Shown here: in pieces, positions 1,690 through 28,037 of the stretch
How the letters are laid out: each line of letters opens with the position of its first letter
How positions within the stretch are numbered: position 1 is the first letter of the stretch
Sequence record: MT446422.1
Length of the DNA stretch: 64,000 bases
Source: Escherichia virus TH57
Reading direction: 5' to 3' (one strand)
Notes under the pieces: generated by a model
Told to the model about the DNA's origin: nothing
The model's input: the letters and a program-made list of their open reading frames with translations, nothing else
Databases searched by the model: none
Program-made: the position numbers and the translations under genes

Positions 1690-2601
1690 ATGTCTATGTT
1701 TAAACGTAAAAACCCTGCTGACCTGGCTGCTTCCCTTAACGCTCTGAAAGGTGGTTCTGGTTTCTCTTCTGACGATAAAAAAGAATGGAAACTGAAAGAT
1801 ACTGATGGCGTCGGTTCTGCGGTTATTCGTTTCCTGCCTTCCAAAAATGAAGAAAATCCATCTCCGTTCATCAAGCTCGTTAATCACGGCTTTAAAAATG
1901 GCGGTCAATGGTATATTGAAAACTGTACTTCTACCCACGGCGATTATGAAAACTGCCCTGTGTGTGCGTACATGAATAAGAATGACCTGTACAACACAAA
2001 CGAATCCGAATATCGTAAACTGAAGCGTAATACTTCTTACTGGGCTAACATCCTGGTCATTAAAGACCCTGCTGTTCCGTCTAACGAAGGTCAAGTATTT
2101 AAATATCGCTTCGGCAAGAAAATCATGGACAAAATTAACCAGATGGTTGAAGTCGATGTTGATATGGGCGAAACAGCTATTGATGTAACTTGTCCTTTTG
2201 AAGGTGCAAACTTTGTACTGAAATCTAAACTGGTTTCCGGTTATAAAAACTACGATGATTCCAAATTCATGAACCAGTCTGAAATCGCTGGTATCAATGA
2301 TGAAGCATTCCAGAAAAAACTTTGGGACGAAATGTCTGACCTGAATGAATTGCTGGTGTTTAAATCCCTTGAAGAGAATCAGAAGAAATTCTCTAAAGTA
2401 ATGGGTACAGCTGCTCTTGGTGGTGCTGCTTCTAAAGCCGCTGCACAAGCTGATAAACTGGGCGCTGACCTGGACGATTTTGATAAAGATATGGAAGACT
2501 TCACTTCCAGCAAACCTGCTAAGTCTGAACGCACTGCGACTGCTCCAAGCACTCCAGAGCCTTCTGATGATGGTCTTGACGACCTGCTGGCTGGCCTTTA
2601 A
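1690..2601 (+). CDS. 32: single-stranded DNA-binding protein gp32
   Basis: 303 aa; N-terminus [61 protein letters not shown] and acidic Asp/Ser-rich C-terminus closely match T4 gp32; strong SD AAGGAAA. Confidence 0.95.
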
Positions 2602-5158: not shown

Positions 5159-6817
<1,659 letters not shown>

Positions 6818-7243: not shown

Positions 7244-9499
7244 ATGCAAGTACAAAAAAGTAGTGGCGTATCTCAAGATTTTGATGGCCAGAAAATTATT
7301 AAAGTTCTTTCCTGGTCATGCGAAGGAACCAATATCGACCCGTATGAATTATACGAAACAATCAAACCACATCTGCGCGATGGTATGACTACTCGCGATA
7401 TTCAGACGGTTATCATCAAAGTGTCTGCTGGACTTATCTCGGTTGAAGAACCAGATTACCAATACGTTGCGGCGAAGGCTACGATGTTTGCTCTGCGTAA
7501 AGATGTTTATGGCCAGTTCGAGCCACGTTCTTTTATTGACCAGATTTCTTATTGTGTCAATGAAGGCAAATATGACCCGGAGCTGTTGTCAAGCTACTCG
7601 GCTGAAGAGATTACTTACCTGGAATCTCGTATCAAGCACGAACGTGATTTTGACCTGACTTATGCAGGCGCGATGCAGTTGAAAGAGAAATACCTGGTTA
7701 AAGATAAAACCACTGGGAAAATCTATGAGACTCCGCAGTTCGCTATCATGGCCATCGGCATGGCACTGCATCAGGATGAACCAACGGACCGTCTGAAGCA
7801 CGTTTGTCGTTTTTATGATGCAGTATCCACGCAGCAGATTTCGTTGCCCACACCTATCATGGCGGGCGCCAGAACACCTACCCGACAGTTCAGTTCATGC
7901 GTGGTTATCGAAGCTGCTGACTCCCTGAAGTCAATTAATAAGACTGCTAATTCAATCATCGAATATATCAGTAAGCGTGCAGGTATCGGTATCAACGTTG
8001 GCATGATTCGTGCTGAAGGTTCGAAAATTGGTATGGGTGAAGTCAAGCATACTGGTGTTATTCCGTTCTGGAAACATTTCCAAACGGCTGTTAAATCCTG
8101 TTCACAAGGTGGAATCCGTGGCGGCGCTGCTACTGCTTATTATCCTATTTGGCATTTGGAAGTTGAAAATTTACTCGTTCTGAAGAACAACAAAGGCGTT
8201 GAAGAAAACCGTATCAGGCATATGGACTATGGTGTCCAGTTGAATAACCTGATGATGGAACGACTGGCCAAGAATGATTACATCACTCTGTTTAGTCCAC
8301 ACGAAGCTGGCGGTGAATTGTATTATTCATATTTTGATAACCCGGATAAATTCCGTGAGTTATATGAAGCCTTAGAAAAAGACCCATCAGTTCGTAAGAA
8401 ACGTATCAAAGCAAAAGATGTATTTGAATTATTCATGACCGAACGTTCCGGTACAGCCAGGGTTTATCCACAATTCGTTGATAACGTGAATGACTATACT
8501 CCGTTCATCCGCGATAAGGCTCCGATTCGTCAATCAAACCTTTGCTGCGAAATTGCAATCCCGACTACTGATGTGAACAGCGAAGACGCTGAAATCGGAT
8601 TGTGCACATTGTCTGCATTTGTTCTGGATAGTTTTGACTGGCAGGACCAAGATAAGATTAACGAGCTAGCCGAAGTTCAAGTTCGTGCTCTTGACAACCT
8701 GTTGGACTATCAGGGTTATCCGGTTAAAGAAGCTCTGAAAGCCAAAAAACGCCGCAACCTGGGTGTTGGGGTTACTAACTATGCTGCATGGCTGGCAAGC
8801 AATTTCGCTTCCTACGCTGATGCAAACGATTTAACGCATGAACTGTTCGAGAGATTACAATATGGCCTTATCCGAGCATCAATCAAGCTCGCCAAAGAAA
8901 AAGGACCTTGCGAATATTATTCAGACACTCGTTGGGCTCGAGGCGAATTACCTATCGACTGGTACAATAAAAAGATTGACCAAATCGCAGCTCCAAACTA
9001 CGTTTGTGACTGGGCGCAGTTGCGGGAAGACCTGGTTGAACATGGCATCCGTAATAGCACATTATCAGCACTTATGCCTTGTGAGTCATCTTCCCAAGTT
9101 TCTAACAGTACAAACGGTATCGAACCTCCGCGTGGACCAGTCTCTATTAAAGAGTCAAAAGAGGGTTCCTTTAATCAAGTCGTGCCCAATATTGAGCACA
9201 ATAAAGGATTGTACGATTACGCATGGGTGTTAGCTAAGCAGGGTAACAAACCTTATCTGACCCAAGTCGCGATTATGTTGAAATGGATTTGTCAGTCAGC
9301 ATCGGCGAATACGTATTATGACCCGCAGAATTATCCGAAAGGAAAAGTTCCGATGTCAGTTATGCTTGACGACTTGATGTACTTCTGGTATTTTGGTGGA
9401 AAAAACCTTTATTATCATAACACTAGAGATGGTTCCGGTACAGACGATTACGAAATCGAAGCTCCTAAAGCAGAAGACTGCTCCGCCTGTAAACTTTGA
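7244..9499 (+). CDS. nrdA: ribonucleoside-diphosphate reductase, alpha (large) subunit
   Basis: 751 aa; class I RNR large-subunit active-site motifs (NLCCEI, ALMPCESSS) and C-terminal Cys pair. Confidence 0.95.
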   Translation: MQVQKSSGVSQDFDGQKIIKVLSWSCEGTNIDPYELYETIKPHLRDGMTTRDIQTVIIKVSAGLISVEEPDYQYVAAKATMFALRKDVYGQFEPRSFIDQISYCVNEGKYDPELLSSYSAEEITYLESRIKHERDFDLTYAGAMQLKEKYLVKDKTTGKIYETPQFAIMAIGMALHQDEPTDRLKHVCRFYDAVSTQQISLPTPIMAGARTPTRQFSSCVVIEAADSLKSINKTANSIIEYISKRAGIGINVGMIRAEGSKIGMGEVKHTGVIPFWKHFQTAVKSCSQGGIRGGAATAYYPIWHLEVENLLVLKNNKGVEENRIRHMDYGVQLNNLMMERLAKNDYITLFSPHEAGGELYYSYFDNPDKFRELYEALEKDPSVRKKRIKAKDVFELFMTERSGTARVYPQFVDNVNDYTPFIRDKAPIRQSNLCCEIAIPTTDVNSEDAEIGLCTLSAFVLDSFDWQDQDKINELAEVQVRALDNLLDYQGYPVKEALKAKKRRNLGVGVTNYAAWLASNFASYADANDLTHELFERLQYGLIRASIKLAKEKGPCEYYSDTRWARGELPIDWYNKKIDQIAAPNYVCDWAQLREDLVEHGIRNSTLSALMPCESSSQVSNSTNGIEPPRGPVSIKESKEGSFNQVVPNIEHNKGLYDYAWVLAKQGNKPYLTQVAIMLKWICQSASANTYYDPQNYPKGKVPMSVMLDDLMYFWYFGGKNLYYHNTRDGSGTDDYEIEAPKAEDCSACKL

Positions 9500-9537
9500 T
9501 ATAATTATGCTCATGGATGAGCTATTGAGGAAATAAA

Positions 9538-10716
9538 ATGAGTACAGTTTTTAATACCACTCCGGTGGATGTTTTAGCCGAGCCTATGTTTTTTGGTTCA
9601 GGATTGGGGATTGCCCGTTATGATATCCAGCGTCATAAAGTTTTCGAAGAATTAACAGAAAAGCAATTATCATTCTTCTGGCGTCCAGAGGAAGTAAACC
9701 TGATGATGGACGGAGCCCAATTTAATAAGCTTCCTGAACATCAACAAAATATTTTTACCAACAACCTGAAATACCAATCACTTCTGGATAGTATCCAGGG
9801 TCGTGCTCCAGCTGCAGCATTAGCCGCATTAGTTTCTGACCCAAGTCTTGATACATGGATTCAGACCTGGACATTCAGCGAGACAATTCACTCTCGTTCT
9901 TATACGCACATAATGCGAAATCTTTATACGGACCCGGCGAAGGTATTCGACGAAATCCTGTTAGATGATGCAATCATGAAGCGCGCAGAATCCATCGGTC
10001 ATTACTATGATGATGTTCTGAATAAAACTCGTCAATGGCAAAACCAGATTGCTTTTGTTGAACTGGCCAAAGAAACTCCCGAAGCGGACGAACGTTTGGA
10101 ACGAGCTATCAAACAAGAATCTATCGCCAAACGAGCATTGATGAAGTCTCTTTATCTCTGCCTGCATGTCATTAATGCCCTGGAAGCCATTCGTTTTTAT
10201 GTATCTTTTGCTTGTACTTTCAACTTCCATAAGAACATGGAAATCATGGAAGGCAATGCGAAGATAATGAAGTTCATCGCCCGTGATGAACAGCTCCACC
10301 TTAAGGGGACTCAATATATTCTTCGTCAGTTGCAGACTGGTACCGACGGTGACGAATGGGTTAAAATCGCACATGAATGTGAAGCAGAAGCCGCAGCCAT
10401 TTTCATGGAAGTTAATCGCCAGGAAAAAGAATGGGCCGTGCATCTGTTTAAAGATGGTGGACTTCCTGGGTTGAGCGTCGAGATTCTTAACCGGTTCATC
10501 GATTACCTGACGGTTTCTCGTATGAAGCAATGCGGTCTCCCGTGTGAAATCGTGTTAGAATCTACTAAGCACCCGATTCCATGGATTCGCGAATATCTTA
10601 ACTCTGATAATGTGCAATCAGCACCGCAAGAAGTTGAGTTGTCTGCTTACCTGGTAGCCCAGATTGACAATGACGTCGATGAGAACGTTCTTGCTGGTTT
10701 CCGTAAATATCTATAA
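9538..10716 (+). CDS. nrdB: ribonucleoside-diphosphate reductase, beta (small) subunit (uninterrupted, no intron)
   Basis: 392 aa; R2-type sequence with di-iron ligands (ETIHSRSY, ALEAIRFYVSFA, RDEQLH); continuous ORF. Confidence 0.95.
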   Translation: MSTVFNTTPVDVLAEPMFFGSGLGIARYDIQRHKVFEELTEKQLSFFWRPEEVNLMMDGAQFNKLPEHQQNIFTNNLKYQSLLDSIQGRAPAAALAALVSDPSLDTWIQTWTFSETIHSRSYTHIMRNLYTDPAKVFDEILLDDAIMKRAESIGHYYDDVLNKTRQWQNQIAFVELAKETPEADERLERAIKQESIAKRALMKSLYLCLHVINALEAIRFYVSFACTFNFHKNMEIMEGNAKIMKFIARDEQLHLKGTQYILRQLQTGTDGDEWVKIAHECEAEAAAIFMEVNRQEKEWAVHLFKDGGLPGLSVEILNRFIDYLTVSRMKQCGLPCEIVLESTKHPIPWIREYLNSDNVQSAPQEVELSAYLVAQIDNDVDENVLAGFRKYL

Positions 10717-10742: not shown

Positions 10743-11153
10743 ATGAAACAAATCGCTGACGAATACAGTTTTATAAAATACGCGGAGTTGGAGTTAGTCG
10801 ATGGTAAAATCCCTATCCTTACTCTCGCAAACAAGAAAAATGTTATCTATGCTATTTCAGTTGATGATGAACTAGTGTATATTGGTAAGACGAACAACCT
10901 TAAGAAGCGTATCAACTATTACCGGACTGCAATTAACCGAATCGAACAGACGAGTGATTCAAACAAATCCCGGATGATACATGAAGCTTTACAAGAAGGC
11001 AAAAAGGTGGTATTCTATGCACGACAATGTTTCAATCTGTCAATGACCAATGAGCTTGGCACGATGTCAGTCGAAACTATGTCTCTGGAAGAGCCGATGT
11101 TCATCAAGCTTTTTAATCCCCCGTGGAATTACCAACATAAGGTGAAGAAATGA
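10743..11153 (+). CDS. denA: endonuclease II (GIY-YIG family)
   Basis: 136 aa from ATG at 10743 (MKQIADEY); GIY-YIG-like VIYAISVDDELVYIGKTNNLKKRINYY; FYARQCFNLSMTNELGT and KLFNPPWN match T4 DenA; position after nrdB as in T4. Confidence 0.8.
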   Translation: MKQIADEYSFIKYAELELVDGKIPILTLANKKNVIYAISVDDELVYIGKTNNLKKRINYYRTAINRIEQTSDSNKSRMIHEALQEGKKVVFYARQCFNLSMTNELGTMSVETMSLEEPMFIKLFNPPWNYQHKVKK

Positions 11154-12286
11154 TTGAATTATATGACAACTTAATGAAGCTGTGCGCCGAATCTGAAAAA
11201 GGTAAGTTTTTCTATACTGATTTCGTTTCTCCATTTGAAACTAAGTTCCGCATCTTTAGCTATAACTATGCTTCCTATAGTGATTGGCTACTGGATGATG
11301 CACTTGAATGTCGCGGCATTATGTTTGAAATGGATGACAATGGCCCAGTTCGCATTGCGGCCCGTCCTATGGAAAAATTCTTTAATCTGGGTGAGAACCC
11401 AATGACCATGGACCTTAACCTTGATGAAGTTGTCCTGGTTACTGCAAAAGCTGATGGTAGTTTGGTTTCCACTTATATGGACCAGACCAATATCGCCTTT
11501 AAATCCAAAGGGTCAATCAAAAGCTCACAAGCTGCAGAAGCTCTGCAGGTGTTTAAACAACCTCATCGTGAAGCGTTCAGGGCGCGTGTGACTGAAATCA
11601 CTGAAGCTGGATATACTTGCAATATGGAATATGTTGCACCAACCAATCGCATTGTTCTTCCTTATCAGGAACGTGACCTGATTTTGCTGAACGTTCGTCA
11701 TAATGAAACTGGTGAATATATTCCTTATCCTGAATTGTTCAAAGATGCTGCGCTCCGTCCTTTCCTGGTTGAAGCATATGACCCGGCGAGCATTGAGAAT
11801 GTTCGTGGTATGAAAGAGATTGAAGGCTTCGTCTATGAGCTGGCGAGTGGTCAGAAGTTCAAGATGAAAACAGAATGGTATTGTGCTCTACATCATACCA
11901 AAGACTCCATTAATAATAATGAGCGACTGTTTGAGGTTGTTGTTGCTGGCGGGGCTGATGATGTTATTGCCATGTTTACTGGCGATGATTACGCTCGTGA
12001 AAAAGTTAATGCCTTTACCATTGTACATCTGGATTATCTGTCCAACACTCTTGGACTGTTGCTTGATGCACAAAAACAGTTAGCAGGAAAAGACCGTCGC
12101 GAGTTTGCGATTAAAGGTCAAGAGTTGTGTAAACCATACCCGGGATTGTTCTCCGTATTAATGAACACCTATCAACGCCCACAGGAAACTGAACAAACGA
12201 TTGCTCAAATCAATAAAGTTTTCCTTAAAAATCATAAACTTTACATTCCGTTGGACTACCAGGCGGAAGTAATCCTTCCTGAATAA
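11150..12286 (+). CDS. rnlA: RNA ligase 1
   Basis: 378 aa; FRIFSYNYASYSDWLLDDALECRGIMFEMDDNGPVRIAARPMEKFFNL and lysine nucleotidyl-transferase motif TAKADGSLVSTY match T4 Rnl1 (gene 63). Confidence 0.9.
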   Translation: MIELYDNLMKLCAESEKGKFFYTDFVSPFETKFRIFSYNYASYSDWLLDDALECRGIMFEMDDNGPVRIAARPMEKFFNLGENPMTMDLNLDEVVLVTAKADGSLVSTYMDQTNIAFKSKGSIKSSQAAEALQVFKQPHREAFRARVTEITEAGYTCNMEYVAPTNRIVLPYQERDLILLNVRHNETGEYIPYPELFKDAALRPFLVEAYDPASIENVRGMKEIEGFVYELASGQKFKMKTEWYCALHHTKDSINNNERLFEVVVAGGADDVIAMFTGDDYAREKVNAFTIVHLDYLSNTLGLLLDAQKQLAGKDRREFAIKGQELCKPYPGLFSVLMNTYQRPQETEQTIAQINKVFLKNHKLYIPLDYQAEVILPE

Positions 12287-12356: not shown

Positions 12357-12590
12357 ATGTTAAACTTAATTACAAATGACAGAGTTACACAGGCATATGG
12401 TGACAGAAATGATGGAATCTATGTCTACAAGGGAGACCGCCGGATTGGTTTCATTACTGACCTGAAGGCCAAATTGTTAAAAGAATTGAAAGCCCAAACA
12501 AGTGATTCTGGGTTTAGAGCAAGAGCCAAAAAGAAAGATGAGCGCCTGGGTGCCAACTCTTTTGGTCCTAGAGGTTACAACCGCTACTAA
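12357..12590 (+). CDS. hypothetical protein, stand-alone paralog of the N-terminal domain of the following alc-like gene
   Basis: 77 aa from Met 12 (SD GAGGA); YGDRNDGIYVYKGDRRIGFITDLKAKL parallels YGDRHDGIYVYKGTKKIGLMTDLRKKL in 12604..13107. Confidence 0.4.
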   Translation: MLNLITNDRVTQAYGDRNDGIYVYKGDRRIGFITDLKAKLLKELKAQTSDSGFRARAKKKDERLGANSFGPRGYNRY

Positions 12591-12603
12591 TGAGGAAAAT
12601 ATT

Positions 12604-13107
12604 ATGGATATGCAACTGATTTCAAACGAAATGATTGTCAATGAATATGGTGACCGCCATGACGGAATTTATGTCTATAAAGGGACCAAGAAAATTGGTC
12701 TCATGACTGACCTGCGGAAAAAACTCGCCTCCAATAAAAAGTTGAAGGCGAAACAAAAAGAATATCGTGATAAAAAATCAGAAGAGCGGAAAGAAGCACT
12801 GCATGAATCTGTTCCTGAAATGGTTGACTTCTTAAAGAACCATTTGGTTAAATATGATGCAGAAGTGTTCATTAACCAGACCCAACCTAATGTACATATC
12901 AATGGATGTGTTTGTTATGTTGTGGTTGAACCCCTGACACTTCAACACCGCCTGGGGATTAAACACCCAGTGTTAACCCAGGATGATATGGCGGATGAAG
13001 TTGGTAATCAGTTCCGCATTTCAGCGTCTGACAGTACAAATCACATCCTCCTGAATGGTTTATCCCAGGATGATATTGTTGAGGTAATCATCAAGTTATG
13101 CAAATAA
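12604..13107 (+). CDS. alc: putative Alc (host-transcription inhibitor) homolog
   Basis: 167 aa, same length as T4 Alc by memory, and sits between rnlA and pseT as in T4; assignment by synteny and size only. Confidence 0.4.
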   Translation: MDMQLISNEMIVNEYGDRHDGIYVYKGTKKIGLMTDLRKKLASNKKLKAKQKEYRDKKSEERKEALHESVPEMVDFLKNHLVKYDAEVFINQTQPNVHINGCVCYVVVEPLTLQHRLGIKHPVLTQDDMADEVGNQFRISASDSTNHILLNGLSQDDIVEVIIKLCK

Positions 13108-14388: not shown

Positions 14389-16249
<1,861 letters not shown>

Positions 16250-19888: not shown

Positions 19889-20143
19889 ATGTCTTTAAAC
19901 AAACAATTACAACACGCTCTTGAACTGCAACGCACTGCATGGAATAACGGTCACGAAAACTACGGCGCATCTATTGATGTTGAAGCCGAAGCACTGGAAA
20001 TTCTGCAGTATTTCAAACATCTTAACCCGGTACAAACCGACCTTCGCGCTGTACTCGAAGCTAAAGATGAATTGAAATATGCTAAGCCGCTGGCATCTGC
20101 TGCGCGTAAAGCTGTTCGACATTTTGTCGTTACTCTGAAGTAA
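19889..20143 (+). CDS. rIII: putative rIII lysis-inhibition accessory protein
   Basis: 84 aa from Met 46 of track ORF 19754..20143; size and position next to gene 31 fit T4 rIII; synteny and size only. Confidence 0.4.
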   Translation: MSLNKQLQHALELQRTAWNNGHENYGASIDVEAEALEILQYFKHLNPVQTDLRAVLEAKDELKYAKPLASAARKAVRHFVVTLK

Positions 20144-20389: not shown

Positions 20390-20551
20390 ATGGCTAAGAA
20401 AGAAGTTAAAGTTGTTGATGGCTCCTCCAAACGCGCTGGTTACAAGCGTGCGTCCAACAAGCGAATCAATCAGGTGACTGATAAACTTCAGGCTCGTGCT
20501 CGTGCGGTATTGCGTGCCGATGCAGCTTGCTTTGGTAAGCCGAAAGCATAA
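20390..20551 (+). CDS. small basic protein (53 aa), hypothetical
   Basis: Read from sequence: MAKKEVKVVDGSSKRAGYKRASNKR...; below the track size cutoff; followed at once by a strong terminator; SD weak. Confidence 0.3.
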   Translation: MAKKEVKVVDGSSKRAGYKRASNKRINQVTDKLQARARAVLRADAACFGKPKA

Positions 20552-20556
20552 GTTCA

Positions 20557-20581
20557 GGGGCTCTTCGGAGCCCTTTTTTTT
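20557..20581 (+). terminator. Rho-independent terminator
   Basis: GGGCTC-TTCG-GAGCCC hairpin plus 8-T run. Confidence 0.65.
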
Positions 20582-20594
20582 CTAGGAAAATATT

Positions 20595-20951
20595 ATGAAC
20601 GATAGATACAATCACACGTTTACTACACCGCGTGGAGCATCGTATGCAGCGCCTGGTCTGGAGCCATACAATGCAATTCCGGAACATCATCCTGCTGCAT
20701 ATGTTCCACCAAGCCCTCCGATATACACACCACCTGCGAAACCGTATGACGATGCAATTTATCTTGTCGCTTTCTTAAGTGAAGCTGGTACACAAGACCG
20801 GGGCTGTCAACGTTCTGGTTTGCTTACTGAACTGGAAGCACATAAACGCGCCAGAGAATGGATTGAGACAAATCCAAAGGGTGAAGCTATTGTAATGAAA
20901 GCCAAAAACTTCTATACAGCTGAAGTAACCCATAAAATAATTATCAAATGA
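20595..20951 (+). CDS. hypothetical protein (Pro-rich N-terminal half)
   Basis: 118-aa ORF between two terminators. Confidence 0.4.
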   Translation: MNDRYNHTFTTPRGASYAAPGLEPYNAIPEHHPAAYVPPSPPIYTPPAKPYDDAIYLVAFLSEAGTQDRGCQRSGLLTELEAHKRAREWIETNPKGEAIVMKAKNFYTAEVTHKIIIK

Positions 20952-20976
20952 CTCCTTCGGGAGTCTTTTTTTTTTT
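20950..20976 (+). terminator. Rho-independent terminator
   Basis: GACTCC-TTCG-GGAGTC hairpin plus 11-T run. Confidence 0.7.
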
Positions 20977-21055: not shown

Positions 21056-21424
21056 ATGAAAATCAATCTTAACTCATACATCAAAGGTAAAGACCACGAC
21101 GGTTACAAAGCCATTGAAACTAAAGAGATGCAATGGCACTTGTATAAAGAACAGTTTGAATTTGTTGGTTGCATGACTCCTGAAGGTCCTTCTGATGACT
21201 TCTCTTGGAAAATTATGGTAACAAACTTTTTTACTGGTGATACCTACGAACTGAAAACTATCATAACCGGTAAGATTCGTTGTAAGACCTATGAAGATGA
21301 AGAAACTGGTTATTCTGAAGATGTTACATGGTATCAAAATGGTCGCAATACTGCTGATGATTTGATTGAAAAAATGAAAGCTAAGGGTGAATTAAATTTA
21401 GATAATTGGATTAAAGTCGCATAA
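21056..21424 (+). CDS. hypothetical protein
   Basis: 122-aa ORF, SD GGAGAA. Confidence 0.4.
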   Translation: MKINLNSYIKGKDHDGYKAIETKEMQWHLYKEQFEFVGCMTPEGPSDDFSWKIMVTNFFTGDTYELKTIITGKIRCKTYEDEETGYSEDVTWYQNGRNTADDLIEKMKAKGELNLDNWIKVA

Positions 21425-21495: not shown

Positions 21496-21861
21496 ATGAA
21501 CTACATCAACTTTGAACGCAAATATGTTTCTATCAGTGCAGTTGGTTCTAACGAGTATATGAGCTTATGGGAACATAAAAATGGTTCGGTATGTGAAATT
21601 GACCATTGGGTTTCTCCTGATTATGTTTATATGCGATTTGAAAATGGTATCACCCTTTCAATCACTAAAGAAGGTTCTACTTTTAAAATCGCGTTAGATG
21701 ATGATTTCCGTGAACGTGATTTAGGAACTCATCCTTGCTGGAATGGTGTTAATCGCAAGCTTCTGGTTAAAACTTGGATTCGTCACATCCTGAGCAATAA
21801 AGCAAAACCTGAACACCTGGAAGCAATCTTTGATGTAGTTCTTAATGAATTTGATATCTAA
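21496..21861 (+). CDS. hypothetical protein
   Basis: 121-aa ORF, SD GGAGAA. Confidence 0.4.
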   Translation: MNYINFERKYVSISAVGSNEYMSLWEHKNGSVCEIDHWVSPDYVYMRFENGITLSITKEGSTFKIALDDDFRERDLGTHPCWNGVNRKLLVKTWIRHILSNKAKPEHLEAIFDVVLNEFDI

Positions 21862-21899: not shown

Positions 21900-22187
21900 A
21901 TGTTTATGACTACTTACTTTGATACACGTAAAAATTTCTGTGAAGTTGTTTTCTCTAAAAAAGGCCCTAATGTTCCTGCTGGGTGTGAACCAACACGCGA
22001 TTCCATTAAGAACTATGTTGATGTAGTTTGTCCACTAGAATTCAGGACTGTTAATGGACGCGATACTCTGGCAATCACCAAGCTTAGACGCGACATTGAT
22101 ATTGACCCAATTGCTGCGCGGGAAATTAATTCATCTGATATTAATGGTAAAAATGTTAAATCACGCGGTTTCCTGACGAGGTTCTAA
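21900..22187 (+). CDS. hypothetical protein
   Basis: 95-aa ORF, SD GAGGAAAA. Confidence 0.4.
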   Translation: MFMTTYFDTRKNFCEVVFSKKGPNVPAGCEPTRDSIKNYVDVVCPLEFRTVNGRDTLAITKLRRDIDIDPIAAREINSSDINGKNVKSRGFLTRF

Positions 22188-22381
22188 TGAAATTATTCTT
22201 ATCACAAACTGTTCAGTTAAAAGGTGTGGGTATTCCTGGAATGATTTCAAAGGTCCTGCCTGCTTTTAAATTCGGGGGTATTGTAATTAAAGAAGCGTAT
22301 TTAGTCTTGTGGGTTGATGGAACTGAAGACCTTCGCATGGGTGGTGAGTTGTCTGTAATCAAATGTTTAAAGCGAGGCTAA
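22187..22381 (+). CDS. hypothetical protein
   Basis: 64-aa ORF with overlapping stop/start. Confidence 0.35.
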   Translation: MKLFLSQTVQLKGVGIPGMISKVLPAFKFGGIVIKEAYLVLWVDGTEDLRMGGELSVIKCLKRG

Positions 22382-22382
22382 T

Positions 22383-22595
22383 ATGTTTAAGAAATTGATT
22401 CAGAAGATTTTGGGCACAGAAATGGTTGAAGTGACTTATCGCGTGACCGACGTAAGTCCATGGGCCCGAAATATTGAACCATATACTAAAACAATTAAAA
22501 TGCTGAAATCTGACGGCGGATTATCTATTAAAGACCGTCTACCTGGTTATGGTCATTGGGCTGATGTAGAGATTATCAGTGTCAAAGATATTTAA
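22383..22595 (+). CDS. hypothetical 70-aa protein, tandem paralog A
   Basis: MFKKLIQKILGTEMVEVTYRVTD...SIKDRLPGYGHW...IISVKDI parallels the next ORF. Confidence 0.45.
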   Translation: MFKKLIQKILGTEMVEVTYRVTDVSPWARNIEPYTKTIKMLKSDGGLSIKDRLPGYGHWADVEIISVKDI

Positions 22596-22604
22596 GGAAC
22601 CTTC

Positions 22605-22817
22605 ATGATTAATAAATTATTTAAAAAGCTGTTTGGCTTGGAAATGGTTGAAGTGACTTATCGTGTTATTGATTTATCACCGCCATATGCTTGCGATGAA
22701 GATGCTATTAAAACTGTTGTTATGCGAAAAACATATCGCGGGCGGTCAATTAAAGAAAGATTGCCAGACCATGGCATGTGGTATGCAACCAAGATTATCA
22801 GTGTCAAAGATGTCTGA
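22605..22817 (+). CDS. hypothetical 70-aa protein, tandem paralog B
   Basis: MINKLFKKLFGLEMVEVTYRVID...SIKERLPDHGMW...IISVKDV. Confidence 0.45.
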   Translation: MINKLFKKLFGLEMVEVTYRVIDLSPPYACDEDAIKTVVMRKTYRGRSIKERLPDHGMWYATKIISVKDV

Positions 22818-23268
22818 GTTAGAAATCAGAAGTAATTTTCCGTGGCCATCATGTGCATTAAGTAACTTTGCTAAATGGCCTTTTGTTATGGAGGGTATCC
22901 AGTTTGGAGGTCTTGAAGGCTTCCTACAAGGATGCAAGGTGAGAAATGTTGAACAACAAAAACGTATATTTGGGATGTCCGGATTGGCCGCCCAGCAAAG
23001 TGGAAGAGCTTATGCAAGAGCTGCGGACCGTGGGACGCTTTTCTGGTGTGGAATTCCCTTTTCAAGATACTCTACAGCATGGAAAGAGTTGTATACAAAT
23101 GCATATTTTGAAGCAGCGCTCCAAAACAGAGGGTTTCGCGATGCGTTACAATCCACAAAAGGCAAAGTTTTAAAGCATTCGATGGCAAGTCACCTTACTG
23201 TTCATGATACAATATTGACTGAACAAGAATTTATTGACATACTTAACCAATTGAGAGATGCATTATGA
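22810..23268 (+). CDS. NADAR-like (YbiA-like) domain protein, candidate ADP-ribose/N-glycoside hydrolase
   Basis: 152 aa from Met 50 of track ORF 22663..23268; LSNFAKWPF, EGFLQGCK and YFEAALQNRGFRDALQST resemble YbiA/NADAR blocks as recalled; start overlaps upstream stop. Confidence 0.45.
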   Translation: MSELEIRSNFPWPSCALSNFAKWPFVMEGIQFGGLEGFLQGCKVRNVEQQKRIFGMSGLAAQQSGRAYARAADRGTLFWCGIPFSRYSTAWKELYTNAYFEAALQNRGFRDALQSTKGKVLKHSMASHLTVHDTILTEQEFIDILNQLRDAL

Positions 23269-24089
23269 AACCCGTTATTTTAACAGATATTGATGGCGTA
23301 TGTTTGTCATGGCAGTCTGGCTTGCCTTATTTCGCTCAAAAATATAATTTACCCCTGGAACACATCCTTAAGATGATTCAGGATGAAAAATTTGTGACCC
23401 CTGGTAAACTTTTCAATTGTGATGAAGAGTTAGGCGCGCAGTTAATTGAAAAATATAACTGTTCGGACTTTATTCGCTATTTGTCTCCTTATGCGGATGC
23501 ATTAAGGGTTATTAATAACATTAAAGAGCAATATGATTTTGTGGCTGTTACAGCACTGGGTGATTCTATTGATGCTCGCCTGAATCGTCAATTCAACCTG
23601 AATGCTTTGTTCCCTGGGGCATTTAAAGAAGTGATGATGTGTGGTCATACAGCCTCTAAAGAGGAGTTATTTCAGAAGGCAAAAGACAAATATAATGTCA
23701 TTTGTTATATTGATGACCTTGCGCACCATTGCGACCATGCGAGTGAAATTCTTGAGGTTCCTGTTTATTGGATGGCCCGCGGCGAACGTGATGCTATTCC
23801 TAAAACAGCTTCCAAAGTTTTTAATTGGGACGATGTTGCTGGACAGCTTAAACTGAAACACAAAGATGAACCGGTCAAACCAGAATTCACCCCAGATGAA
23901 CTCCGTAAACTGGAAGAGCTGTTTCGTGAAACTCGCCGTCTTCAACAACAAATGCAACAAGGCTGGCAACCAGGTCAACCATGGACTCCTGGTTATAATC
24001 CAGCATATCCATATCAATATGGCCAGCGTGTGGGTACTGGTATTGAATATTGGTACAATCAACCGACCGGTGGCCAAGGGGGTAATTGA
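23265..24089 (+). CDS. HAD-superfamily phosphatase-like protein with Gln/Pro/Tyr-rich C-terminal tail
   Basis: 274 aa; N-terminal HAD motif I ILTDIDGV; C-terminal low-complexity QQQMQQGWQPGQPWTPGYNPAYPYQYGQ; ATGA overlap with NADAR-like gene. Confidence 0.45.
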   Translation: MKPVILTDIDGVCLSWQSGLPYFAQKYNLPLEHILKMIQDEKFVTPGKLFNCDEELGAQLIEKYNCSDFIRYLSPYADALRVINNIKEQYDFVAVTALGDSIDARLNRQFNLNALFPGAFKEVMMCGHTASKEELFQKAKDKYNVICYIDDLAHHCDHASEILEVPVYWMARGERDAIPKTASKVFNWDDVAGQLKLKHKDEPVKPEFTPDELRKLEELFRETRRLQQQMQQGWQPGQPWTPGYNPAYPYQYGQRVGTGIEYWYNQPTGGQGGN

Positions 24090-24367
24090 TGTTTGTCGTT
24101 CATACTATTTCTGATTATGGTCCTACTACTACCATGGATTATGGCCATGTTAATCAGTTTATTCGTCATGTGAATCATGATTACTCGTTTGATATTAACC
24201 CAGCCAAAGACCATCCGGTTTGGCGTGAATGCGTTGAGCAAGGGTTTATCTATGTTCACTTTATGTCTAAGTTTAAACCAGATGGGCGAATGAGATTTGT
24301 GTTCTCTTATCATAAGCGTCTGGATTTGCTTTTGGAAGATGTGGCATATAATAGAGCCAACGACTAA
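24086..24367 (+). CDS. hypothetical protein
   Basis: 93-aa ORF coupled between the HAD-like gene and ligase. Confidence 0.4.
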   Translation: MMFVVHTISDYGPTTTMDYGHVNQFIRHVNHDYSFDINPAKDHPVWRECVEQGFIYVHFMSKFKPDGRMRFVFSYHKRLDLLLEDVAYNRAND

Positions 24368-24370
24368 GAG

Positions 24371-25918
24371 GTGATTATGATTTTAGATATTTTAAATGAA
24401 ATTGCTGCAACCGATTCCACTAAAGAGAAACAAGCTATCCTGGAATCGTATTCTGACAATGAAACCCTTAAACGCGTGTATCGTTTGACATATTCCAAAG
24501 GCATCCAGTTCTATATCAAGAAATGGCCAAAACCTGGGACAACGACTCAAAGCTTTGGTATGTTGAATATCGATGATATGCTTGACTTTATCGAATTTAC
24601 ATTGGCCTCTCGCAAATTGACAGGTAATGCTGCAATCGAGGAATTATCTGGCTATATTGCTGATGGTAAAAAAGCAGATGTTGAAGTTCTTCGCCGTGTG
24701 ATGATGCGTGACCTGGAATGCGGGGCATCCGTATCAATTGCAAATAAGGTTTGGAAAGGTTTAATTCCTGAACAACCGCAGATGCTTGCTTCTTCCTATG
24801 ATGAAGCCGGTATTGCCAAGAACATTAAGTTCCCGGCCTTTGCGCAATTGAAAGCCGACGGTGCTCGGTGTTTTGCAGAAGTTCGTGGCGATGAGTTGGA
24901 TGATGTTCGATTGTTATCCCGAGCTGGCAACGAATACCTCAAGCTTGACCTCCTTAAAAAGGAATTAATTGAAGCCACCCGTGAAGCGCGTGAGAGACAC
25001 CCTGAGGGCGTTTTAATTGATGGTGAGTTAGTATACCATGAACAGAAAGTAGCTCCCCAGAATGACGGTTTGGGCTTCCTTTTTGACGATATGCCTGAGC
25101 TTAGCAAGGCAAAAGAATTCGAGGAATTCGCGGAATCAAGAACCTTTTCAAATGGTCTGGCAAACAAATCATTGAAAGGAACTATTTCTGCAGCAGAAGC
25201 TTCTTGCATGAAATTCCAGGTTTGGGATTATGTTCCGCTGATTGAAGTCTATTCTGATGTTAAGATTCTCAATCCGTTGAAATACGATGTGCGTTTTGCT
25301 GTTCTGGAAAAAATGATTGCAGATAACGTGGTGCTGCACGGTTTTGACCGCATGATTCTGATTGAAAACCATGTTGTTAACAATCTCGATGAAGCGAAGG
25401 TTATCTATAAGAAATATGTGGATGAAGGTCTTGAAGGTATTATCCTTAAGAACATGGCATCGATTTGGGAAAACAAGCGCTCCAAGAACTTGTACAAGTT
25501 CAAAGAAGTAATTGACATTGCAATGGAAATCATTGGATATTACGAGCACGATAAAGACCCGAATAAGATTGGCGGTGTTGTGCTTCGTTCTTCTTGTGGT
25601 AAGATTACGAATAACTGTGGTTCTGGTTTTAAAGACACAACTCAAGTCAAAGATAAGAAAACCAAAAAATGGGTTACTATTCCGATTGAGAAGCGTCATG
25701 AAATGGACCGTGAAGCCTTGATGGTTAAAGCTCGTAAAGGTGAATTGGTTGGAATGATTGCTGACTGTGAATGTAATGGTTGGGTGACTTCCGAGACTCG
25801 TAAAGATAATACGGTTGCATTGTTCCTGCCGATTATCAAAGGGTTCCGTTTCGATAAAGACCATGCAGACACATTCGAAGATGTATTTGGCGACTGGTCA
25901 AAGACTGGGTTAAAATAA
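24371..25918 (+). CDS. 30: ATP-dependent DNA ligase
   Basis: 515 aa; ILNEIAATDSTKEKQAILE, adenylation motif FAQLKADGARCFAEV, VLIDGELV, GLEGIILK; long stretches match T4 gp30. Confidence 0.95.
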   Translation: MIMILDILNEIAATDSTKEKQAILESYSDNETLKRVYRLTYSKGIQFYIKKWPKPGTTTQSFGMLNIDDMLDFIEFTLASRKLTGNAAIEELSGYIADGKKADVEVLRRVMMRDLECGASVSIANKVWKGLIPEQPQMLASSYDEAGIAKNIKFPAFAQLKADGARCFAEVRGDELDDVRLLSRAGNEYLKLDLLKKELIEATREARERHPEGVLIDGELVYHEQKVAPQNDGLGFLFDDMPELSKAKEFEEFAESRTFSNGLANKSLKGTISAAEASCMKFQVWDYVPLIEVYSDVKILNPLKYDVRFAVLEKMIADNVVLHGFDRMILIENHVVNNLDEAKVIYKKYVDEGLEGIILKNMASIWENKRSKNLYKFKEVIDIAMEIIGYYEHDKDPNKIGGVVLRSSCGKITNNCGSGFKDTTQVKDKKTKKWVTIPIEKRHEMDREALMVKARKGELVGMIADCECNGWVTSETRKDNTVALFLPIIKGFRFDKDHADTFEDVFGDWSKTGLK

Positions 25919-25976: not shown

Positions 25977-28037
25977 ATGTCTGAACAATTAAATGAACTC
26001 TTTGACAAATATATCGAAGCCTTCGGTTATCCTGTCATTAATATGAATCCAAAATACAAGGTCCCGCAGGTTTGGCAATTCGGTGTTCCTGGGACCAATT
26101 CTCTTATGGCCCGTTTGATGCAATTCACGGGCAAAGAAACAGTTAAACAATATAAACGTGGCGATGCAATTGCCGAGGTATTCCTGTTATCCGGGACTTC
26201 ACACGGCCACGCTGTTCCTCTGAAGGGTGGTCTAGGTGAAAAACCTCTTGACGCGATTAACCTGATTTTTGTTACAGTCTGGGAAAGCATTAAACTAGGT
26301 AAACCTGATGTAGTCTTGTTCCGTTTCCCATCCAAAAAGATGAAAGGACAAGACCAAGCTGTTATTCGTATTATGAATCGACTGATTCAAATGAAAACCA
26401 GCGGGCGTTATCATGTTCTTCCGAATGCTTCTGGCCTCGGTAAAAAGAACGCTTATGTAATTATGTACAAAAAGGGTGTTGACCTGCTTTCGGTTGATGG
26501 TATGCCACCAGTCCCTGAGAAATATCAAAAAGTTGAAACTAAAGTTGGCGATGTATTCACCAATAAAGATACAGGCGCGCAAGTCTCCAAACAAGAAATC
26601 GCAGCCGAAGTTCTGATTGACGCAGCAAACAAAAAGACCGATGCGGCTGTTGCACAGAAAACAAAAATCAGCCGCCGAGCTATTGCACAAGCCCAGTACG
26701 CTCCAAGTGATTCCGTGCCAGAAGGTTGGGACGAAATTGATGCAGAAGCTGCTAAGTTTAGTCGACCGGCTACAGCAGAACTTATTGATGATTATGAAGA
26801 ACTGGAAATTTTTGTTCGACCTTCCGAAACGAATACTATGGCTCGTATGCGCGCAGCAGATACGGCTATGCGTGCAAATGGTGTTTGGAAAGAAGAAATT
26901 CGTGTTGAAGACTCCGACCCAATTTTTAACCGTATGCATCGCGAACTTAAACGTGCCCCAGTTGGTAGTATGAAGCAGATGCAGATTTTTGCCGAATCAT
27001 GTGCAGAGATTCTTAACCTTCGCAAAGCCGCATTTATCGAAAGAAAAATGAATGATGCTCCTCCTAACCTGGATGCAGCCACTTATGCAGCCACGCTCTG
27101 GGAAGAAGAATACACAAGCGCCATTCGTGTTGCAGTTAAAGACTTTGCAGAAGAAGCATCAGAAAATACTCTTAATTTCACAGCAGGGTATACTGACAAC
27201 CGTTTCCATTATGGCCAGCGTGAAGCAATTGCAGATTATTGTGGAGCCAACTATGTCGATATTAATAATTATTTGATGGGTAATTATTATGAAGAAGACG
27301 CCGAATTCCTAAATCTAGACAGAGTTGTCGAAACAATTAAGGAATTGGATTCGGCCTTTGAAATTGGACATAAGTTGCCACCTAATACAACTCTTTGGCG
27401 TGGTCAATATTTAAACGTTCCTACATTTAATAAAATTAAACAGTCGAAATTATTTTATTTTAGGAACTATGTATCAACATCATTTAAACCAATTATCTTT
27501 GGTGGCTGGGTGGCGAACGTTGCTATGGCCGCAGTTCATCAGGACTATCGCGACGGGACATCTTTCCAGGCTGATGACGAAATTGTTTTACCAAATATCC
27601 CAGGTGCAAACCCGGACAACGCAATGATTCATGTCGGTTGGAAAATTTCTGGGGCAGACTTAATTAACGTAATTGTTCCTGGGGAATTGTCAGGCAACCC
27701 ATCCGAGCAGGAAGTTATTCTTCCACGTGGAACTGTAGTTAAGATTACCAAAATTACGGATGCTTCGTATAAAGGAAACGCGAACGTCAAAATGCTGGAA
27801 GCTGATATCCAGACCACTGACCAACTGGATGAAAATGCAGTTATCTATGATGGTGATGTGTTGATGGAAACTGGTGAGCTTGTCGTTTATCAGGGCGAGG
27901 AATCAGAAGAGCCAGTAGAATCTGTTGACTTTGCATCGTTTGCATCCTCCGGGGTGACGAAGAAAGTCAATCAAGGTCTTGGTATTCTTGCTAGTTGTAT
28001 TAATTTGGAAGCTATTCCTCCTAAATTCCTTTCGTAG
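25977..28037 (+). CDS. alt: ADP-ribosyltransferase Alt (virion-packaged, modifies host RNA polymerase)
   Basis: 686 aa; ART-type motifs (NYVSTSF with STS, EQEVILPRG with catalytic Glu); position after ligase as in T4. Confidence 0.8.
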   Translation: MSEQLNELFDKYIEAFGYPVINMNPKYKVPQVWQFGVPGTNSLMARLMQFTGKETVKQYKRGDAIAEVFLLSGTSHGHAVPLKGGLGEKPLDAINLIFVTVWESIKLGKPDVVLFRFPSKKMKGQDQAVIRIMNRLIQMKTSGRYHVLPNASGLGKKNAYVIMYKKGVDLLSVDGMPPVPEKYQKVETKVGDVFTNKDTGAQVSKQEIAAEVLIDAANKKTDAAVAQKTKISRRAIAQAQYAPSDSVPEGWDEIDAEAAKFSRPATAELIDDYEELEIFVRPSETNTMARMRAADTAMRANGVWKEEIRVEDSDPIFNRMHRELKRAPVGSMKQMQIFAESCAEILNLRKAAFIERKMNDAPPNLDAATYAATLWEEEYTSAIRVAVKDFAEEASENTLNFTAGYTDNRFHYGQREAIADYCGANYVDINNYLMGNYYEEDAEFLNLDRVVETIKELDSAFEIGHKLPPNTTLWRGQYLNVPTFNKIKQSKLFYFRNYVSTSFKPIIFGGWVANVAMAAVHQDYRDGTSFQADDEIVLPNIPGANPDNAMIHVGWKISGADLINVIVPGELSGNPSEQEVILPRGTVVKITKITDASYKGNANVKMLEADIQTTDQLDENAVIYDGDVLMETGELVVYQGEESEEPVESVDFASFASSGVTKKVNQGLGILASCINLEAIPPKFLS

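Follow-up and report, generated by a model that had tools for sequence, protein, structure and literature searches.

A putative anti-DarTG1 gene and a predicted capped HAD phosphatase gene are probably separate neighbors in a T4-type operon of Escherichia virus TH57

Introduction

Two overlapping genes upstream of the DNA ligase gene of Escherichia virus TH57 (sequence record MT446422.1) raise the question of whether a NADAR-like protein and a HAD phosphatase-like protein act as one counterdefense unit or simply stand next to each other. The DNA analyzed here, called the window throughout, is the whole stretch of 64,000 nucleotides. A first-pass annotation of this sequence had read the two genes as a candidate module for removing and processing ADP-ribose that would counter DarTG-type defense, and it had named profile searches, structure prediction, and co-occurrence of the pair across phage genomes as ways of checking this proposal.

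The NADAR half of the question has a published background. The NADAR nature of the T4 gene 30.3 product (gp30.3) was an earlier bioinformatic prediction that was followed by in vitro work in 2024 (PMC11125620) and by genetics in 2025 (PMC11825919). Johannesman et al. (Nat Commun 2025, PMC11825919) gave T4 gene 30.3 the name adfN (anti-DarT factor NADAR) and reported that deletion of adfN made T4 sensitive to DarTG1 and that RB69 was rescued by ectopic expression of adfN. Purified T4 AdfN alone stripped ADP-ribose from DarT1-modified DNA in vitro, and AdfN was weakened by the substitutions E36A and K43A and by an RB69-type truncation of 15 C-terminal residues (PMC11825919). The independent in vitro study found guanine-specific de-ADP-ribosylation by T4 gp30.3 and noted that the gp30.3 clade has a His at a position occupied by Asp or Glu in other NADARs (PMC11125620).

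Results

The window contains T4-like myovirus DNA, and the 2.2 kb around the two genes was 98.7% identical to Escherichia virus TH54 and 92 to 95% identical to the VR7/SP18 group. Gene names and gene order were assigned by mapping VR7 proteins onto the window, which placed rIII (19889..20140), 30.9 (20390..20548), 30.8 (21056..21421), 30.7 (21496..21858), 30.6 (21900..22184), 30.5 (22187..22378), and a first copy of 30.4 (22383..22595) ahead of a second, divergent copy of 30.4 (22605..22817, plus strand). The 70-aa product of this second copy was assigned to phrog_2042, with 54% identity to VR7 gp30.4, and was identical to that of the first copy at 37 of 70 residues. The stop of the second copy overlaps by 8 nt the start of 30.3 (22810..23268, plus strand; 152 aa), the adfN orthologue, which was identified by PF08010 and by alignment to T4 gp30.3. 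Gene 30.2, an ORF of 274 aa (23265..24089, plus strand), follows, and direct reading of the sequence placed an ATGA stop/start overlap between the two genes at 23265..23268 on the plus strand. Next come 30.1 (24089..24367, plus strand; DUF3045; PF11243, E = 6e-17; 91% identity to VR7 gp30.1), whose ATG has one base in common with the 30.2 stop, gene 30, encoding the ATP-dependent DNA ligase (24377..25918, plus strand; PF01068, E = 3e-28; 90% identity to the VR7 ligase), and alt, encoding an Alt-type ADP-ribosyltransferase (25977..28037, plus strand; PF03496, E = 8.9e-20). The coordinates that the first-pass annotation had given for the two ORFs, the overlap of the first stop with the second start, and the placement of the pair in the rIII-to-30 region beside ligase and Alt were all exact.

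The genes in this region are tightly packed. Between 30.8 and alt, 7 of the 10 junctions show either an overlap or a gap of at most 9 nt. The ATGA overlap between 30.3 and 30.2, which T4 and 13 IMG/VR loci share, is thus an instance of how closely the genes of this operon are packed and is not diagnostic of a module. No terminator-like hairpin with a T-run was seen from the hairpin at 20950-20965 to the end of the ligase gene. In tblastn searches of phage records, 30.3 was found in 1,509 records and 30.2 in 1,438, and both are real, conserved genes.

The product of 30.3 in the window matched the Pfam family PF08010 (Phage_30_3) over residues 12 to 150 (E = 3.4e-63, 212 bits, against a gathering cutoff of 36 bits) and was 84% identical over its full length to T4 gp30.3, with 24 substitutions between two proteins of 152 residues each. 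Residues E36, K43, and H123 of T4 AdfN were all present in the alignment, E36 and H123 being invariant among nine divergent members of the gp30.3 family, and the C-terminal helix region was intact, its last 16 residues aligning to T4 free of gaps. Membership in the wider NADAR superfamily was indicated by two relatives that matched Pfam NADAR (PF08719) at 1.2e-5 and by alignment of the gp30.3 family profile onto the catalytic motif of E. coli YbiA (2b3w). The match of the window protein to the YbiA-type N-glycosidase model TIGR02464 (NCBIfam) was subthreshold (E = 0.052). A single-sequence AF2 prediction of the protein had a pLDDT of 35, and the NADAR fold is taken from the T4 literature. PADLOC returned no match for either gp30.3 or gp30.2 of the window.

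Because of the 84% identity to the T4 orthologue and the retention of the catalytic residues, we infer that 30.3 in the window encodes an intact AdfN, a NADAR-superfamily DNA ADP-ribosylglycohydrolase acting against DarTG1. Such a protein would cleave off the ADP-ribose that DarT1, the host toxin, attaches to guanine bases of phage DNA, after which phage replication would proceed in DarTG1-carrying hosts. The annotation of the first gene as NADAR-like was thus upheld by PF08010, by the three conserved residues, and by published work on the T4 orthologue, and the anti-DarT counterdefense ascribed to it may be extended from T4 AdfN, which counters DarTG1 (PMC11825919). This half of the proposal was already known, and the window adds one more intact allele.

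The N terminus of the protein encoded by 30.2 (gp30.2), MKPVILTDIDGV, corresponds to HAD motif I. The motifs D8-I-D10-G-V, T96, K132, and D150-D151 make up a complete set, with the second Asp that is typical of phosphatases. Among 84 aligned homologues, D8, D10, K132, D150, and D151 were invariant and T96 was at least 90% conserved. An AF2 model of gp30.2 computed with this 84-sequence alignment had a pLDDT of 89 overall and of more than 94 for residues 1 to 190, and it consisted of a Rossmann-like core with four cap helices (residues 16 to 65) inserted between motifs I and II. Residues 1 to 200 (23265..23864, plus strand) were delimited as the predicted catalytic part, a C1-capped HAD phosphatase domain. 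In a Foldseek search of the PDB, the top match to the model was the mouse cytosolic 5'(3')-deoxyribonucleotidase (cdN; 2jao; E = 2.7e-8, probability 1.0), and human cdN and its mitochondrial counterpart, mdN, recurred among the matches. The same entry, 2jao, was the only HAD structure in the PDB that was matched by the gp30.2 sequence, with W16 standing opposite the Phe that follows DGV in 2jao. A search of the BFVD recovered orthologues together with loosely annotated viral "5' nucleotidases."

Searches of Pfam and NCBIfam with gp30.2 of the window gave no match, and no curated HAD profile scored above threshold; across the 84 family members, NT5C (PF06941) was matched weakly and below threshold by 15 and PF00702 below threshold by 19. 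Since the family is too divergent for curated models, its HAD membership rests on fold and motifs. On the model, gp30.2 is predicted to be a genuine, catalytically competent C1-capped HAD phosphatase. The second product had been described in the first-pass annotation as a HAD protein (DIDGV) with a Gln/Pro/Tyr-rich tail, and the four motifs, the capped fold, and a Q/G/P/Y-rich end agree with that description. The proposed checks divided between the two proteins: profile searches identified the first (PF08010) but gave no curated HAD profile for the second, whereas structure prediction returned a capped HAD fold for the second but only the low-scoring model described above for the first.

gp30.2 was assigned to phrog_420, a PHROG without an assigned function, and literature searches for gp30.2 found no functional work. 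The named sources of its 114 cluster-level homologues were all phages except for one labeled Acinetobacter baumannii. When one genome from each of 185,579 bacterial and archaeal species was scanned, the sole relative to emerge lay on a phage-sized contig of 178 kb. Among the neighbors of distant environmental HAD relatives (26 clusters), only PhoH and generic ATPases recurred, and no NADAR, ligase, or nucleotide metabolism signal was seen. By these comparisons, gp30.2 represents a divergent HAD superfamily branch that is essentially confined to phages.

HAD superfamily enzymes that carry a cap act on small molecules, and those that lack one act on macromolecules. By these structure-function rules, the substrate of gp30.2, with its C1 cap, would be a small phosphorylated molecule, and because gp30.2 most resembles 5'(3')-deoxyribonucleotidases, a (deoxy)nucleoside monophosphate would be the most likely candidate, a proposal made with low confidence.

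The C-terminal part of gp30.2 (residues 201 to 274; 23865..24089, plus strand), delimited from AF2 secondary structure and pLDDT, contains a long helix (residues 210 to 232) and continues as a Q/G/P/Y/W-rich tail with a pLDDT of 50 to 70 past residue ~235. By a count of the translation, about two-thirds of the last ~49 residues are Q, G, P, or Y. About half of the homologues lack the tail, and in the others it is hypervariable; the motif GIEYxxxQPT, which reads GIEYWYNQPT in the window, was common to 15 of 58 long homologues. We speculate that this variable, disordered tail probably serves to anchor gp30.2 to a partner protein.

Gene neighborhoods were compared from the side of each gene. At all 28 T4-like HAD loci, the order HAD gene, (30.1), ligase gene was kept. 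At these same loci, a NADAR gene lay directly upstream of the HAD gene in 6 and 0.6 to 1.5 kb upstream in 6, and no NADAR gene was present within 6 kb in 15. Seen from the NADAR side (79 IMG/VR loci), a HAD gene was adjacent in 15, with an ATGA overlap in 13 of them, and 0.1 to 1.2 kb away in 14, and none was found within ~3 kb in 50. In eight complete genomes, including those of CBH8, Merlin, Cronus, and EcS1, the NADAR and HAD genes were 53 to 69 kb apart (in phage Merlin, the neighbors of the unlinked NADAR gene are without assigned function). Adjacency of 30.3 and 30.2 is confined to one sublineage, and the genes that constantly accompany 30.2 are 30.1 and the DNA ligase gene rather than the NADAR gene. 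The check on co-occurrence named in the first-pass annotation showed that the pair is not kept side by side across the loci compared.

Constant linkage to the ligase gene would fit a role for gp30.2 as a PNKP-like nucleic acid 3'-phosphatase that prepares nicks for the ligase encoded two genes downstream, and so would a weak PHROG match to polynucleotide kinase phrog_415 (E = 0.0038) and some database annotations in which homologues are named "polynucleotide kinase." However, the four-helix C1 cap lies over the active site in the gp30.2 model, and, as reportedly set out by Burroughs et al. in 2006, HADs with a cap accept small substrates, whereas phosphatases that process ends lack a cap. Alignment by hhalign against the phosphatase domain of the phage's own PNKP recovered motif I only, at a probability of 12%. 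The phage, moreover, already encodes PseT/PNKP (14702..15610; PF25109), and a conserved gene order in the core of T4-like genomes does not have to imply a common function. A PNKP-like end-healing role was rejected on the cap architecture and the hhalign result, and we regard a nick-preparing 3'-phosphatase at this locus as very unlikely.

Genetic data on both genes were available from the T4 transposon screen HIDEN-SEQ, whose supplementary resampling tables compare a control host with a defense host (bioRxiv 10.1101/2025.11.20.689424). The DarTG1 test in this screen used one DarTG1 allele, plasmid-borne, in E. coli K-12, and the identity of the DarTG1 sheet was confirmed by the DarTG2 header directly after it. 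Insertions in T4 30.3 were lost on the DarTG1 host (log2FC = -7.25, padj = 0), whereas insertions in 30.2 were unchanged (log2FC = -0.12, P = 0.61, 71 TA sites). Insertions in 30.4 were mildly depleted on DarTG1 (log2FC = -1.79, adjusted P = 0.014), as expected from polarity, since 30.4 lies upstream of 30.3. Insertions in 30.2 were also neutral on DarTG2 (log2FC = 0.00), on RnlAB (0.02), and in M9 versus LB (-0.10), and in the reference library (K-12, LB) they occupied 72 of 72 sites. T4 30.2 was dispensable in every Tn-seq condition examined (K-12 LB, RnlAB, DarTG1, DarTG2, and M9).

These results bear directly on the proposal that the pair is a functional module, in which AdfN would remove ADP-ribose and gp30.2 would process the released ADP-ribose or a derivative of it or serve as a T-even-specific cofactor. 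Such a cofactor would answer to published observations: T4 AdfN was fully active only during T-even infection, for which the authors suggested an additional phage protein, and in uninfected cells it failed to relieve the toxicity of DarT1 (PMC11825919). Elsewhere, enzymes that release ADP-ribose are often paired with phosphatases, HAD 5'-nucleotidases among them (PMC9503650), and the ATGA overlap is kept in T4 and 13 further loci. Against this stand the neutrality of 30.2 insertions on DarTG1 and DarTG2 hosts, where the former eliminates 30.3 insertions, the wide separation of the two genes in eight genomes, the 50 of 79 NADAR loci with no HAD gene nearby, and the in vitro activity of AdfN by itself; overlaps, for their part, are the norm in this operon. 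No HAD link was found in the NARP3 paper. The neutrality of 30.2 on DarTG1 also speaks against gp30.2 as the T-even factor on which AdfN seems to depend. The Tn-seq data, the lineage-limited adjacency, and the generic overlap go against a coupled two-gene module, and this reading is largely refuted for DarTG1 in T4; we consider it highly improbable overall, although gp30.2 might act against other DarT variants or in other hosts. The two-gene counterdefense of the first-pass annotation therefore stood for the NADAR gene but not for its HAD partner.

Discussion

The pair is most plausibly read as two separate enzymes whose genes are neighbors in a compact early/middle operon of the T4 type, with gp30.2 outside the anti-DarTG defense, and we hold this to be probable. 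Where the original proposal was right, its content was already known, and its new part, the module, was unsupported. The locus amounts to a known counterdefense gene beside an ordinary neighbor.

A further possibility concerns the role of gp30.2 itself, which may be an independent counterdefense or nucleotide pool enzyme. Its target would be some host system or condition that laboratory E. coli K-12 lacks, and it might work, for instance, by removing phosphate from a toxic or signaling nucleotide. Several observations are compatible with this: the gene occurs in more than 1,400 phage records and yet was dispensable in all T4 Tn-seq conditions examined, the region is rich in accessory and anti-defense genes, and the family is phage restricted apart from the one phage-sized contig. 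Many T4 accessory genes, however, are dispensable in the laboratory irrespective of what they do, and we judge this explanation doubtful. In an equally doubtful form, gp30.2 would be a second, independent accessory phosphatase acting on a toxic or signaling nucleotide or on an ADP-ribose-derived product of such a host system, with its hypervariable tail and short motifs such as GIEYxxxQPT tethering it to a phage or host complex. An independent accessory function would explain why 30.2 is kept beside the ligase gene at every T4-like HAD locus compared and yet has been dispensable so far.

Among T4-type accessory proteins whose enzyme fold is clear, gp30.2 is one of the most widely conserved. 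A conserved, laboratory-dispensable phosphatase beside a ligase is a legitimate question, although it is unsurprising for a T4 accessory gene. As for the factor that restricts T4 AdfN to T-even infections, the T4 Tn-seq data argue against gp30.2.

Comparison with known systems places the two products in different company. The adfN orthologue of the window shares with T4 adfN its position in the order 30.4/30.3/30.2/30.1/30 and the 8-nt and 4-nt overlaps, and it differs in having two 30.4 paralogues upstream, where T4 has one. With DarG1-type NADAR antitoxins and YbiA (PF08719), the phage proteins share the catalytic motif LSNF...P...G...E-G-x-L-Q-x-x-K, and guanine-ADP-ribose hydrolysis has been reported for all three groups (PMC11125620). 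In contrast to DarG1 and YbiA, the phage gp30.3 clade forms its own Pfam family, PF08010, and carries His (H123) instead of Asp or Glu in the last strand; unlike the DarG1-type antitoxins, it comes without a cognate toxin gene.

For gp30.2, T4 PseT (HAD_PNKP) offers a likeness within the same phage, since both proteins belong to the HAD superfamily and carry a DxDGT/V nucleophile motif. PseT, however, is capless and acts on polynucleotide ends, whereas gp30.2 is predicted to be capped and matches PNKP at motif I alone. The closer resemblance is to cdN and mdN (NT5C, PF06941), with which gp30.2 shares the HAD core, the C1 helical cap, the DxDGV motif, and an aromatic residue four positions after the motif (W16 in gp30.2, Phe in 2jao). 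It differs from them in its low identity (15 to 17%), in falling outside the family at the Pfam level, and in its extra C-terminal extension of ~75 residues, made up of a helix and a disordered tail.

Homologues of gp30.2 and its C-terminal tail

In one cluster of gp30.2 homologues, represented by a protein of 302 aa (P0022), a single ORF encoded both the HAD domain and a DUF3045 (gp30.1) domain. This ORF may be a true fusion, or the assembly may be wrong by one base at the TGATG junction; a real fusion would hint that gp30.2 and gp30.1 are functionally linked. Among bacteria and archaea, searched with one genome per species, the sole relative of gp30.2 (48% identical) was found in the Flagellimonas marina assembly (NZ_JBHSCL010000010.1), on a contig of 178,077 bp. 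The contig is as large as the genome of a T4-like phage, which, together with the identity of 48%, suggests a phage genome or contaminant within the assembly. More distant HAD relatives (25 to 33% identity) were encoded on environmental viral contigs (loci L030 to L081), with neither a ligase nor a NADAR gene within 6 kb and with a PhoH-like gene as a neighbor in 7 of 26 clusters.

The C-terminal tail of gp30.2 (residues 201 to 274; 23865..24089) was missing from approximately half of the homologues and was hypervariable among the others. The motif G-I-E-Y-x-x-x-Q-P-T occurred in 15 of the 58 long versions, from various genera, and may serve as a docking motif for some partner; six-frame translation of the window yielded no further copy outside the tail.

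Gene content of the window

Other genes in the window included those for gp32 (1690..2601), frd/td (5367..6817), nrdA/nrdB (7244..10716), RNA ligase 1 (11150..12286), alc (12502..13107), and, at 14702..15610, the polynucleotide kinase/phosphatase pseT, which gives the phage a separate end-healing phosphatase.

Between 30.9 and 30.8, an additional ORF of 118 aa (20595..20951), which VR7 lacks, was flanked by two hairpins, at 20556-20575 and 20950-20965, that resemble terminators and have T-runs; it looks like a small inserted cassette. The N-terminal half of its product is proline rich, and only residues 44 to 109 matched phrog_17531, a family of unknown function (E value, 1e-25).

Upstream of adfN, two copies of gene 30.4 were found (22383..22595 and 22605..22817; 70 aa each), which were 96% and 54% identical, respectively, to VR7 gp30.4 and identical to each other at 37 of 70 positions. 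The second copy shares its last 8 nt, stop codon included, with the start of adfN. Insertions in 30.4 were modestly depleted in the T4 Tn-seq screen on DarTG1 (log2FC, -1.79; adjusted P = 0.014), which was likely caused by polarity on adfN, with an accessory role of 30.4 itself a conceivable alternative. VR7 and T4 each carry a single gene 30.4, whereas the phage studied here carries two in tandem.
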